A stretch of DNA of 64,000 nt from a candidate division WS6 bacterium OLB20. Lineage in GTDB: Bacteria; Patescibacteriota; Dojkabacteria; B142; OLB20. The notes beneath the pieces were generated by a model. That model saw only the letters and a program-made list of their open reading frames with translations. It was not told where the DNA came from and did not search any database. Positions 48,775 through 50,792 of this stretch are shown here, piece after piece. The position numbers and the translations under genes are program-made. The stretch covers positions 274,124 through 338,123 of the forward strand of contig JYNZ01000003.1 of assembly GCA_001567355.1 (NCBI GenBank), written 5' to 3'. Within the stretch, counting starts at the first letter, position 1. Every line of letters starts with the position of its first letter.

Positions 48775-49761
48775 ATGAACATGGTTACAAGCAAGCTACA
48801 TACAGATCTTTACCTCATAGCAGCAAAGCAGATCGGTCTTAGGACACATGTAATCAACAGCGAGTTTGCCTATGTCGAAATCACTGACGGTCAAAAGATA
48901 TTGCGGATCAAAAATACAAGCTTGTCATCAAACGATATAGTCGCTGCAACCCTGGCCGGGAGTAAGGTGATTGCCTCAAAACTGCTTGATGAGGATGGCA
49001 TTCTGGTACCAAAACAGCATTACTTTGGCTCAAGGAATGATCCTGTTACGCCGGAAACTATCGAGGAAATTGTGAAAACAGCACACGACCTCTACCCTCT
49101 TGTACTCAAGAGAGCGCATGGCTCAGGTGGACATGGTGTGTACGTTAATGTCCAGGATGAGGAACAGCTGCGAAAGATGTATGGGCGTCTGCTGAATAAT
49201 TATAACCCCGCAGTCGTAATAATTGAGGAGTATATCCAGGGCAAAGACTATAGAATACTGGTCTATAAAGACAGAGTTATCGATGTAATCCACCGCATAC
49301 CCGCATATATCACCGGCGACGGAACCAGTACCGTAGCTGAACTTATTGAAGCAAAGAATCAGGAGCGCAAGGCGTTGCGAATTGCACAGATACCTTTCAA
49401 AAAAGACCGGACTTTTCCTTGAGAAGCAGGGACTGAAATATTCCGACGTGCCTGATAGCGGCAGCCGGATAACAGTTATCGGCAACTGTAATTTCTCACA
49501 AGGCGGAGAAACAGCAGGATACCTTTCTCAGAGGTTCATCCGAAAGTTCTGGAGATTGCGAAAAAGGCAGCCCGACTCAGCAGACTATCTCTGTGCGGGG
49601 TCGATGTGATTACGAGGGACATAACAACTGATCCTGAAACGGACCCGAAGTATATTAACGAGATCAATGCAAGTCCCAGCGTAGACGTTCATTACTATGC
49701 TGACAACATGCAGAACCTTAGTGTTGTTAAAGATATCCTGACAATCGAATTCAATCGTTAA
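48775..49761 (+). CDS. RimK/cyanophycin-synthetase-type ATP-grasp ligase, interrupted by two single-base frameshifts (near 49414..49417 and 49520..49530)
   Basis: ORFs 48775..49422 and 49346..49609 plus a third frame to 49761 together give VIIEEYIQGKDYRILV...NCNFSQGGETA...VHPKVLEIAKKAARLSRLSLCGVDVITRD...EINASPSVDVHYY; TAATG overlap with next gene. Confidence 0.65.
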
Positions 49762-50792
49762 TGGCAGCGAACATACACCTACAACAGTACCTTAATGCCG
49801 CTGACAGACTGCCGCTGAGTTACAGCAAGCTGGACAGTGGAACTGCTGAATTCCGTTACAGAACGCACAGATTTCTGATCATCGGAGCTGACACCCCGAT
49901 AAATGACTCTTCCAGTGCAACCATCACCCGGTACAAACACCGTTCGCAGCGCATCCTGGCTGAAAAGGGTCTGACCGTACCAAGATTTGAGAAATGCAGT
50001 ACAGAAAAGGAGTTTGTGAACAGGCTGAAGCAGTTTGACTGCGATATTGTGGTAAAACCGACGGACGGAATCGGCGGCAAAGGTGTCAGCATTAAACCGC
50101 AATCACCCGAAGACAAACGCGAGGCATTCCGTATTGCCAAAGCAGAGAGCAAAACAGGGCGGGTATTAATCGAACAGTACATTGAAGGTTCACACTACCG
50201 GATTCTGATTCTGGATGGCAAAATGATTGCTGCTGCGAGACGCTATCCGGCGTCGGTAACAGGAAATGGTTCAGATACTATTGATAGTCTGATTAACAGC
50301 TACAATCTGGCGTGTAAGCATGACTCTTCGCGCGCACCGATCAGGGTCGACTCTGAAGTCGCAAACTGCCTGCGCGAGCAAAACATTGCAATTACCGATA
50401 TTCCTGCAGCCGGTGTCCGGATTGAACTGAGACGCAACTGTAACCTCTCTACTGGAGGAACGACAGCTGAATGCACTGATAGTGTCCCTGAGGTCGCGAT
50501 CAGAGAAGCAATTGCAGCTGCAGGATCGTTATGCCTGAGGTTTGCAGGAGTCGATATTATCTACACCCCTGGTGGTGAAGCATTCATCAATGAGGTCAAT
50601 TGCAACCCCGGAATGCGCATCCACTACTACCCCAGTTCAGGAAGGACAATTGATGTTGCCCGTTACGTTCTGCAGGCAATTCTGGATGAGTATGACCGGA
50701 TGGATCTGCAGCTTCTAGCTGCCCCGAAGACTGCGCTTGATCACGTCGAGGTGCTCGAGGGACTCACTGATACCGTTAATGACAGTCTGTAG
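49761..50792 (+). CDS. RimK/cyanophycin-synthetase-type ATP-grasp ligase (paralog of the preceding gene)
   Basis: VLIEQYIEGSHYRILILDGKMIAAARR, NCNLSTGGTTAECTD, FAGVDIIYTPGGEAFINEVNCNPGM. Confidence 0.75.
   Translation: MAANIHLQQYLNAADRLPLSYSKLDSGTAEFRYRTHRFLIIGADTPINDSSSATITRYKHRSQRILAEKGLTVPRFEKCSTEKEFVNRLKQFDCDIVVKPTDGIGGKGVSIKPQSPEDKREAFRIAKAESKTGRVLIEQYIEGSHYRILILDGKMIAAARRYPASVTGNGSDTIDSLINSYNLACKHDSSRAPIRVDSEVANCLREQNIAITDIPAAGVRIELRRNCNLSTGGTTAECTDSVPEVAIREAIAAAGSLCLRFAGVDIIYTPGGEAFINEVNCNPGMRIHYYPSSGRTIDVARYVLQAILDEYDRMDLQLLAAPKTALDHVEVLEGLTDTVNDSL

Follow-up and report, generated by a model that had tools for sequence, protein, structure and literature searches.

Does a ligase gene that is broken twice within a short distance record a paralogue in decay, or an error left in the assembly? 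The question arises for one of two neighbouring ATP-grasp genes in a 64,000-nucleotide stretch of DNA (the window) from the candidate division WS6 bacterium OLB20, an uncultured organism from wastewater (contig JYNZ01000003.1, positions 274,124 to 338,123). We consider it likely that both frame breaks are residual Ion Torrent sequencing or assembly errors and not gene decay.

The paired ATP-grasp ligases

An earlier sequence-only reading had placed two adjacent ATP-grasp genes at 48775-50792; they lie on the same strand, and these coordinates proved exact:

48775..49761, + strand: copy 1, CphA-G-domain-like ATP-grasp ligase gene (TIGR02068, 7wac_A, orthologue P0001)
49761..50792, + strand: copy 2, intact 343-aa CphA-G-domain-like ATP-grasp ligase (TIGR02068, 7wac_A)

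Copy 1 starts with the ATG at 48775 and its TAA stop (49759-49761) overlaps the ATG of copy 2 (49761-49763; TAATG), the final 78 nt of which are shared with the 3′ end of mreB, a convergent gene. The pairwise alignment of the frame-corrected paralogues, suggested as a check by that reading, spans 326 residues at 29% identity (E = 5e-33), and the similarity is therefore far beyond chance. The architecture said to be shared was found in both genes, with EEYIQGKDYRIL and NCNFSQGGET in copy 1 matched by EQYIEGSHYRIL and NCNLSTGGTT in copy 2. A recent tandem duplication is ruled out by the 29% identity, the differing pocket residues and the occurrence of both copies in a relative (L003), so the term tandem does not hold if meant in that sense. 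As judged from their divergence, the copies are old paralogues from anciently separated subfamilies with different substrate-pocket residues.

The RimK/CphA-type label given to the pair was right and can be sharpened to the CphA G domain. TIGR02068 matched copy 1 with E 1.5e-51 (175 bits, profile positions 167-469) and copy 2 with E 3e-63 (214 bits), the pair covering G-domain positions 167-473, and the CphA1 structure 7wac_A matched with E 6.1e-28 and 1.4e-34 respectively. The C-terminal ATP-grasp of GshAB/GshF (3LN6, 3LN7) and cyanophycin synthetase 2 (7TA5, 8FXH) gave second-tier matches (PDB E 1e-21 to 1e-26), and NF002688 matched both copies (E 3.5e-44 and 5.2e-43). The copies are unlike RimK in scoring only 57.6 bits (copy 1) and 58 bits (copy 2) on TIGR00768 against a cut-off of 143.4, and the PF08443 match was limited to the N-terminal half. 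On this profile evidence both copies belong to the ATP-grasp amino-acid/peptide ligases of the CphA-G/GshF-type subfamily; GshF/CphA2-type members of the same subfamily join an amino acid or dipeptide to a C-terminal carboxylate.

In CphA1, K261 serves the ATP phosphates, R309 the acyl-phosphate and oxyanion, and D431, E450 and N452 are Mg2+ ligands (PMC9427784). Equivalents of all five are present in copy 2 and in repaired copy 1. Moreover, both copies resemble CphA1 (TeCphA1 of Trichodesmium, 7WAC; SuCphA1 of Synechocystis, 7LG5) in the wider set K261, R309, R323, N394, S396, D431, E450, N452 and H460. Copy 2 also has G456 and R458 and hence the full aspartate-binding set (R323, N394, S396, G456, R458), whereas copy 1 and its orthologues carry S456 and D458, though R323, N394 and S396 are kept. 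Unlike CphA1, both copies have Thr in place of E215, the residue that binds the Arg side chain in the cyanophycin (beta-Asp-Arg)n primer, and Gly in place of the P-loop His267, which stabilises the acyl-phosphate. CphA1 is one polypeptide of ~870-930 aa with N, G and M domains, whereas the copies stand alone at 328 and 343 aa with G only; no N domain was found for either, and the TIGR02068 cut-off of 850 bits was not reached. Judged by these features, neither copy strictly qualifies as a cyanophycin synthetase. They differ from GshAB/GshF in having no glutamate-cysteine ligase domain, in scores below the family cut-offs, and in an Rlo-like context rather than glutathione or cyanophycin genes.

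Two single-base breaks in copy 1

As deposited, copy 1 passes from frame 1 to frame 2 and back to frame 1 in the three-frame translation:

48775..49422, + strand: segment A, frame 1, an ORF ending at the premature TGA 49420-49422
49399..49420, + strand: zone of one surplus base, frame 1 to frame 2, from the translation and the DNA alignment with L003
49400..49512, + strand: segment B, frame 2, encoding KKTGLFLEKQGLKYSDVPDSGSRITVIGNCNFSQGGET, including the conserved N394/S396 substrate loop
49512..49513, + strand: one missing base, frame 2 to frame 1, a gap in the window row at GAAAC-AGCAGG
49513..49761, + strand: segment C, frame 1, encoding SRIPFSEV...GVDVITRDI...INEINASPSVDVHYY...EFNR and the stop

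At the first break, DNA alignment with the intact L003 orthologue places one extra window base within 49399..49420, where an A6 run (49399-49404) and a T4 run (49413-49416) are the candidate sites; the repaired reading IPFKKTGLFLEKQ and the orthologue's IPTNKAQLHLEKQ are of equal length. The sequence-only reading had called for a base to be restored near 49414..49417. The opposite is the case, one base having to be removed, and the T4 run that it put at those coordinates lies at 49413-49416. Frame 1 meets four stops across segment B, the TGA at 49420-49422 and three more ahead of the second break. There a missing base had been correctly recognised, at 49520..49530, some 10 nt too far downstream of the 49512/49513 junction. 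The intact orthologue, which reads GGETSRIP, fixes the position by setting GGETSRIPLKTV against GGET/SRIPFSEV, with 49512-49520 tolerated. What is lost is the third base of the Thr codon (AC-) ahead of AGC AGG ATA (SRI). The two indels cancel, leaving a net length change of zero.

Segment A has been deposited as a 213/215-aa 'Cyanophycin synthetase' (KXK26681.1), with no gene annotated between KXK26681 and KXK26682; KXK26678-26683 are exact protein matches for window genes. A cluster look-up found no record of two small internal ORFs of copy 1, and no variants were found for the flanking genes. A split protein, with its N- and C-terminal halves translated separately, was considered and rejected, there being no in-frame start upstream of the D431 region; no start codon would serve a usable C-terminal protein, the earliest being GTG 49606, which gives 51 aa.

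With one base removed and one added, copy 1 encodes 328 aa without an in-frame stop, and the intact orthologue P0001, also of 328 aa, aligns with it (68% identity, 100% coverage). The nine core residues that every compared homologue conserves are all kept, including those downstream of both breaks, and segment C holds the Mg-binding D431, E450 and N452 equivalents. The loss of conserved downstream motifs, named by the sequence-only reading as part of its counter-evidence, did not appear. Synonymous sites are saturated (pS 0.85-1.0) and dN/dS proper is thus not computable, so pN was taken per segment: it is 0.19-0.21 in all three segments of copy 1 and 0.23 at the N-terminus of copy 2. Read from these substitution levels, the comparison shows purifying selection acting evenly before, between and after the breaks. 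Among JGI metagenome contigs, a set from which the OLB20 strain is absent, repaired copy 1 gave 94 pattern matches and 0 were confirmed.

Origin of the breaks

According to its authors, Ion Torrent PGM reads were the sole basis of the OLB20 assembly, and persistent frameshifts had to be corrected by script and by hand. The window retains others besides those of copy 1, in three housekeeping genes. A surplus A in an A6 run, within the NALLKTLEEPP motif, splits dnaX (within 24625-24645); a surplus T in a T7 run splits cca (within 20625-20640); and a missing G splits PBP2 (within 33155-33175). One-base repairs restore proteins of 526, 483 and 630 aa, respectively, and a related strain (L087) has A5 at the dnaX site and an intact 526-aa DnaX. 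The tally for the window is 5 single-base indels and 0 nonsense mutations. The gap at 38150-38740 was also considered as another broken gene and rejected, as it contains tRNA-Tyr and tRNA-Thr.

High-frequency PGM indels consist of A/T insertions and of C/G deletions in 2-3-mers, arise about once per 1-2 kb and frameshift assemblies (Bragg et al. 2013, PMC3623719). The window spectrum (+A, +T, +A/T, -G, -N) matches this: there are single-base indels only, the inserted bases are A or T, the sole identified deletion is a G, and the sites are homopolymers or probable 2-mers. That ~1 indel per 13 kb is left after curation is in keeping with the PGM errors that the authors of the assembly report. 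One feature differs from the published pattern, in which long homopolymers are mostly under-called, whereas the A6 and T7 runs of the window appear over-called by one. On our preferred reading, one A or T would have been inserted in a homopolymer and one base deleted in a probable 2-mer of copy 1, and both breaks would most likely be absent from the organism's own DNA.

Contigs of the 2015 run SRR1797700, which we infer from its accession number and error pattern to be the original Ion Torrent data, differ from the window by 0 substitutions in 2.5 kb, homopolymer-length indels being the sole differences. One of these is a G that restores the PBP2 frame (GG vs G). The remaining two (C6 for C5, C for CC) disrupt genes that the window carries intact, and the cca T7 frameshift is the same in both. 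An assembly error or a decaying paralogue had been offered without preference; the answer lay within that pair of options, and the PGM-only source, the other window lesions, the PBP2 repair and the otherwise intact copy 1 favour error.

That copy 1 is instead a genuine and very recent pseudogene, with a 1-nt homopolymer insertion and a 1-nt deletion ~100 nt downstream fixed in the strain, is unlikely, though it has observations in its favour. Only a 215-aa N-terminal stub could then be made, the C-terminal fragment having no usable internal start, and copy 2 would lack translational coupling. The breaks survived the authors' curation and they, or at least the 213-aa product and the gene spacing, recur in the NCBI assembly, SRR29904084, SRR29904083 and a third contig. 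Logan contigs of SRR29904084 (89 kb) show neither substitution nor indel relative to the window over 54,603 nt and include all five of its frame-breaking indels; those of SRR29904083 also bear the truncated products. The copy 1 sites were seen in other assemblies only in contigs of these two runs, which agree with the window. Unlike plain PGM errors, the window indels would need to have been reproduced in these 2024-numbered runs, and if the runs are independent and accurate then all five indels are real. Moreover, no intact copy 1, dnaX, cca or PBP2 of the OLB20 strain was found in a collection of 15 billion proteins, and the ligase could be dispensable since the island around it is modular and varies between relatives. 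The intact constraint on copy 1 would itself be compatible with very recent pseudogenization.

However, equal logic would make pseudogenes of dnaX, cca and PBP2 within the same 64 kb, and dnaX is an essential gene. A further assembly of the strain contradicts the PBP2 break. Constraint on copy 1 is not relaxed, no motif is lost and there is no further lesion, and the window counts five frameshifts but zero nonsense mutations. Agreement without a single difference over 54.6 kb, between assemblies whose numbers lie years apart, is better accounted for by non-independent data than by an independent sample; no mention of SRR29904083, SRR29904084 or SRR33375175 was found in the literature, recent Dojkabacteria and anammox metagenomes included.

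It is very unlikely that intact and frameshifted copy 1 alleles coexist in a mixed population whose consensus took the broken one. The G vs GG disagreement at PBP2 between assemblies of the same strain makes alleles possible in principle, but the remaining differences change homopolymers and break ORFs, as is typical of read error, there are zero substitutions among the assemblies, and the intact allele is absent from the records.

We regard it as most unlikely that all five indels are genuine with dnaX and cca read at full length through +1 slippage on A6 and T7, the first break of copy 1 being decoded likewise and the second being a lesion or a second recoding. The least probable case of all is that real indels are bypassed throughout, +1 slippage (ribosomal or transcriptional) on A6/T7 rescuing dnaX, cca and the first break of copy 1 and a -1 shift rescuing the second. 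Each of the three surplus-base sites does fall in an A6 or T7 run, on which tRNA-Lys or tRNA-Phe slipping by +1 finds perfect pairing again; in copy 1 and dnaX a UGA stop comes within a few codons; and the sites are reproduced in Logan contigs. The orthologues, however, are in frame (copy 1 in L003, dnaX in L087), and therefore nothing here is conserved or programmed. Slippage by +1 would be open to the A6/T7 runs alone, and the missing-base sites GAA ACA GCA (49505-49515) and ACC ATG CTT (PBP2) contain no slippery heptamer of the form X XXY YYZ. Runs of 6-7 nt are also shorter than known useful transcriptional slippage sites, as in the Buchnera and Thermus cases, and 71 other A/T runs of at least 6 in the window are not tied to any frame change. 

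Residual error, as the likely origin, bears on public data. The truncated fragments, among them the 213-aa 'Cyanophycin synthetase' and a 142-aa 'DNA polymerase III tau', now stand in nr, UniRef and derived collections, and caution is due in sequence-only scans, where Ion Torrent fragments mimic pseudogenes or split genes.

The multi-ligase island and proposed function

The pair is preceded by a leader and four further genes:

44004..44699, + strand: 7-TM membrane protein, the C-terminal 7TM part of RloB (PF14402 E 2.9e-12; NF052267 positions 314-507 of 508)
44701..46122, + strand: RloC-like ATP-grasp fused to a retropepsin-like (RloA/RimB-like) peptidase (ATPgrasp_ST / rimK_rel_E_lig)
46119..47357, + strand: L-amino-acid-ligase-type ATP-grasp gene (ATP-grasp_4 and LAL_C2)
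47357..48619, + strand: Mur-ligase-like gene, CphA M-domain-like and separately encoded (TIGR02068 E 5.2e-27, positions 562-859; PF08245)
48641..48774, + strand: conserved 5′ leader of the pair, TGGTATAAT at 48641-48649, then a long hairpin at ~48656-48703

Blocks of the leader are 100% identical to L003 while the coding DNA is much more diverged, and the hairpin is predicted in both species. The TGGTATAAT box was read directly from the sequence. No Rfam family matched the leader, the sole match being a chance snoRNA (E 0.77), and a consensus scan of 48400-51000 returned no two-hexamer promoter. Copies 1 and 2 are best explained as one translationally coupled pair behind this conserved leader.

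The Mur-like protein (420 aa, 94 bits on TIGR02068) had no sequence match among solved structures at 1e-5. An M-like Mur ligase gene adjoining copies 1 and 2 is a CphA1-like trait, but the gene is absent from the closest relative, L003, and G and M are therefore not an obligate pair. L003 also lacks the L-amino-acid ligase gene, so that copy 1 directly follows the RloC/RloA-like gene. The RloC-retropepsin fusion adjoins CphA-G-like ATP-grasps also in Dojkabacteria L004 and in Saccharibacteria L013 and L049.

The upstream part recalls the Pseudomonas RimB-RimK as well as RloA-RloB-RloC systems (PMC12239564), in which ATP-grasp ligases lie near a retropepsin-like peptidase and Rlo adds a 7TM protein. 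The genes at 44004-46122 match the RloB (7TM part), RloC and RloA models, all with scores far below cut-off. Unlike Pseudomonas Rlo, the window has RloC and peptidase fused, with no separate signal-peptide gene product for the peptidase, and its 7TM protein is without the transglutaminase-like domain. The order 7TM protein, RloC-like-retropepsin fusion, L-amino-acid ligase, Mur-type ligase and two G-like ligases is best explained as an island typical of the candidate phyla radiation (CPR).

Each ligase of the pair would convert the carboxylate of an acceptor peptide or amino acid to an acyl-phosphate by way of its K261, R309 and D431/E450/N452 equivalents, and the acyl-phosphate would then be joined to the amino group of the incoming amino acid. 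Copies 1 and 2 are best explained as differentiated ATP-grasp peptide ligases, both of them probably functional. Since copy 2 keeps the full CphA1 aspartate-recognition set, the amino acid that it adds is probably Asp or one of similar acidity; in the copy 1 clade, with Ser and Asp at 456 and 458, the nucleophile is probably a different one.

With the break set aside, the locus would be a tidy CPR multi-ligase island in which separate genes encode the G-like and M-like modules. It could make either a small peptide or a polyamide resembling cyanophycin, which may be of moderate interest for the envelope and storage biology of reduced bacteria.

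Coordinates, frames and family of the gene pair

Two adjacent ATP-grasp genes lie on the same strand, starting at 48775 and ending at 50792, where a sequence-only reading had placed them:

48775 (ATG) to 49761 (stop TAA 49759-49761), + strand: copy 1, the upstream gene with two frame breaks
49761 (ATG 49761-49763) to 50792, + strand: copy 2, the intact downstream paralog

The last A of the copy 1 stop codon is the first base of the copy 2 start codon (49761). As deposited, the copy 1 ORF covers 215 aa only and ends at a premature TGA (49420-49422); exact protein matches assign the stretch to candidate division WS6 bacterium OLB20, whose GenBank accessions KXK26678 to KXK26683 are consecutive, and no gene is annotated from the end of the 213-aa stub to the start of copy 2. 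Past this stop, the homology is picked up by frame 2 (KKTGLFLEKQGLKYSDVPDSGSRITVIGNCNFSQGGET) and, further on, by frame 1 again (SRIPFSEVHPKVLEIAKKAARLSRLSLCGVDVITRDI...EFNR*). Passing from frame 1 to frame 2 needs one base removed and returning needs one added. The first break had been thought to lack a base near the T4 run; the frame change is indeed there, yet the base is surplus, and it lies within 49399-49420, a zone holding an A6 run (49399-49404) as well as the T4 run (49413-49416). At the second break a base is missing as proposed, although homology puts it exactly at the 49512/49513 junction, as the third base of a Thr codon, some 10 nt upstream of the site first suggested. The two indels cancel, and the repaired, frame-corrected protein has 328 aa. 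It aligns with copy 2 over 326 residues at 29% identity (E = 5e-33), and the proposed paralogy is, judged by this alignment, real but old. Copy 2 shares its final 78 nt (50715..50792) with the 3′ end of the convergent mreB, and its last ~33 residues reach past the CphA-homologous region. This mreB (50715..51719, - strand) adjoins the ligase island, and a second paralog (35766..36821, - strand) heads the mreBCD-PBP2 operon.

The best match of both proteins is the cyanophycin synthetase G (ATP-grasp) domain, followed by the ATP-grasp half of GshAB; RimK is far behind. The earlier RimK/CphA-type assignment is right and can be narrowed to the CphA G-domain type. TIGR02068 is matched at E 1.5e-51 by copy 1 (profile positions 167-469) and at 3e-63 by copy 2 (positions 207-473), and CphA1 chains rank first among solved structures (7wac_A, E 6.1e-28 and 1.4e-34, respectively), ahead of CphA2 and GshAB. 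A Pfam search returned generic ATP-grasp models only. CphA1 has an N domain and a fused M domain, whereas both copies are without either, and their TIGR02068 scores are 175 bits (copy 1) and 214 bits (copy 2) against a cut-off of 850. Therefore, by domain content and score, these are CphA-G-like ligases and not cyanophycin synthetases. GenBank already labels the pair 'Cyanophycin synthetase'. The gene pair is real and ordinary, adding further members to a known ATP-grasp subfamily.

With residue roles as established for TeCphA1 (PMC9427784), K261, R309, R323, N394, S396, D431, E450, N452 and H460 are kept in both copies. Copy 2 also has G456 and R458, which complete the aspartate pocket; in CphA1 this Gly/Arg pair contacts the substrate alpha-carboxylate (PMC9427784). 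Copy 1 has S456/D458, as does its ortholog P0003 from another Dojkabacteria genome (L004), and a ..P[SN]xD.. motif is common in the alignment to the homolog P0004 and to P0001, the intact ortholog on a related-strain contig (L003). Throughout this clade (OLB20, P0001, P0003, P0004), Ser/Asn and Asp occupy the G456/R458 equivalents (window about 49684-49692), where stand-alone homologs from other CPR genomes have Trp, Ser or Asp. The change in the copy 1 clade suggests a different incoming substrate. Moreover, both copies have Gly for the P-loop H267 and Thr for E215, the contact with the Arg of the cyanophycin primer (PMC9427784).

Source of the frame breaks

Three other genes in the window are each split by one indel:

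23472..25053, - strand: dnaX, split into 142 + 322 aa where an A6 run midway through NALLKTLEEPP has one A too many (T6 on the + strand, 24632-24637)
19365..20817, - strand: cca (CCA-adding enzyme), split into 81 + 405 aa by a surplus T in a T7 run (A7 on the + strand, 20630-20636)
32618..34509, - strand: PBP2 (mrdA-like, mreBCD operon), split into 452 + 144 aa where one G is absent (ACCAT-GCTTC) next to 33165/33166

Removing one A gives a 526-aa DnaX, removing one T a 483-aa Cca, and restoring one base a 630-aa PBP2. The dnaX contig of a related strain (L087, SRR15635842) has A5 at this site and an intact 526-aa DnaX.

The OLB20 genome comes from the Olburgen anammox reactor and was, according to its authors, assembled solely from Ion Torrent PGM reads, with a script and manual correction of 'persistent frameshifts, common in IonTorrent data'. 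PGM data carry high-frequency indels, namely A/T insertions and C/G deletions in 2-3-mers, at about one per 1-2 kb and with frameshifts in assemblies (PMC3623719), and the five window indels (+A, +T, +A or T, -G, -N) fit this spectrum. For the same strain, two contigs assembled from the 2015 run SRR1797700 carry no substitution relative to the window in 2.5 kb, the only differences being three homopolymer-length indels. One contig has GG for the window's G exactly at the PBP2 break, which restores the frame, and C6 for C5 85 nt beyond, which breaks it again. The other carries the same cca T7 as the window and, downstream of it, C for CC, which breaks a stretch left whole in the window. These contigs carry roughly one indel per kb; at this rate the chance of an error landing on the few PBP2-repairing positions is < ~1%, and thus the window's PBP2 break is very probably a mistake in the deposited assembly. 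Repaired copy 1 has no in-frame stop, is as long as its ortholog and retains every catalytic residue; pN is 0.19 before, 0.21 between and 0.20 after the breaks, with synonymous sites saturated. None of these measures showed a sign of decay. Of the two origins first offered, assembly error or a decaying paralog, we favour the former: the copy 1 frameshifts are probably artefact and not biology.

That copy 1 is a real recent pseudogene we consider unlikely. The contigs of two 2024 runs (dated by accession number) do not fit an artefact. The SRR29904084 Logan contig (89,379 nt) agrees with the window at every position across 54,603 nt (1..41571 and 43761..56792), with no substitution or indel, and reproduces all five frameshifting indels; short contigs from SRR29904083 give the same truncated products. 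If the reads of both runs are independent and accurate, all five indels are real, that of dnaX included. However, dnaX is an essential gene and would be broken too, the PBP2 break is contradicted by the SRR1797700 contig, and the window holds five frameshifts against zero nonsense mutations. Furthermore, perfect identity across 54.6 kb of coding and intergenic sequence is easier to reconcile with derived or same-technology data than with an independent sample. Mixed alleles of copy 1 are very improbable. Real indels bypassed by recoding are more improbable still: the A6/T7 runs, and only these, could slip +1, but the orthologs read without a shift at both copy 1 sites and likewise at the dnaX site, so nothing here is evolutionarily programmed; no slippery heptamer stands at the missing-base sites, and at 71 other A/T runs of the window, each at least six bases long, the frame does not change.

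Useful by-products are a list of four frameshifted genes in a public genome and the puzzling agreement of the 2024 contigs with the window. Separately, a 2143-aa ORF (9711..16142, - strand) has no Pfam hit on record and is identical in the NCBI and Logan assemblies.

The ligase island and its leader

Profile matches identify four genes upstream of copy 1:

44004..46122, Rlo-like module: 7TM protein matching the membrane part of RloB
same module: RloC-like ATP-grasp fused to a retropepsin-like (RloA/RimB-like) domain
46119..48619: L-amino-acid-ligase-type (LAL) ATP-grasp
same interval: Mur-type ligase matching the CphA M domain (E 5e-27)

The Pseudomonas rlo operon comprises a retropepsin, a 7TM inactive transglutaminase and an ATP-grasp, and influences osmotic tolerance, cell shape and antibiotic resistance; RloB is reported there as 96% proteobacterial (PMC12239564). 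In the window module the 7TM protein is without a transglutaminase domain. Such modules, followed by one to four more ATP-grasps including a CphA-G-like one, occur in Dojkabacteria (L004 3995..9002, at the syntenic site) and Saccharibacteria (L013 4963..8822; L049 4377..8966). L004 also has the same gene pair as the tandem ~200-aa genes at 55405..56013 and 56034..56648 (- strand), both matching nucleoside-diphosphate-kinase (PF00334).

In L003, from the closest relative available (68% protein identity), copy 1 directly follows the ligase-retropepsin gene and the LAL and Mur-type genes are absent (compared with L003 1..605). Therefore, on gene order, either OLB20 acquired this two-gene cassette by insertion or L003 lost it. 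Blocks of the 135-nt copy 1 leader (48641..48774; L003 470..605) are identical base for base in the two species. The leader holds TGGTATAAT and then a long predicted hairpin, whose outer stem is identical in both (ATATTGGnGGAT / ATCCnCCAATAT) and whose inner stem has diverged and still pairs. An Rfam search of the leader gave no family match; on two sequences, it could be a regulatory RNA or attenuator.

Proposed working of the pair

A further by-product is that a conserved CPR ligase island, its leader likewise conserved, can be outlined. We propose that translation of copy 1 and copy 2 would be coupled, on a transcript controlled by the leader. Acting on a peptide or an amino acid as acceptor, each ligase would turn a carboxylate into an acyl-phosphate and transfer it to the amino group of the incoming amino acid. 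Copy 2 has the same pocket as CphA1 and for this reason probably adds Asp or an acidic residue like it, and copy 1 probably uses a nucleophile whose alpha-carboxylate is not arginine-held (D458). The pair would make a small peptide or cyanophycin-like polyamide jointly with the RloC-like ligase and, in OLB20, with the LAL and Mur-type enzymes as well. Processing of this product would fall to the fused retropepsin, and its handling at the membrane to the 7TM protein.
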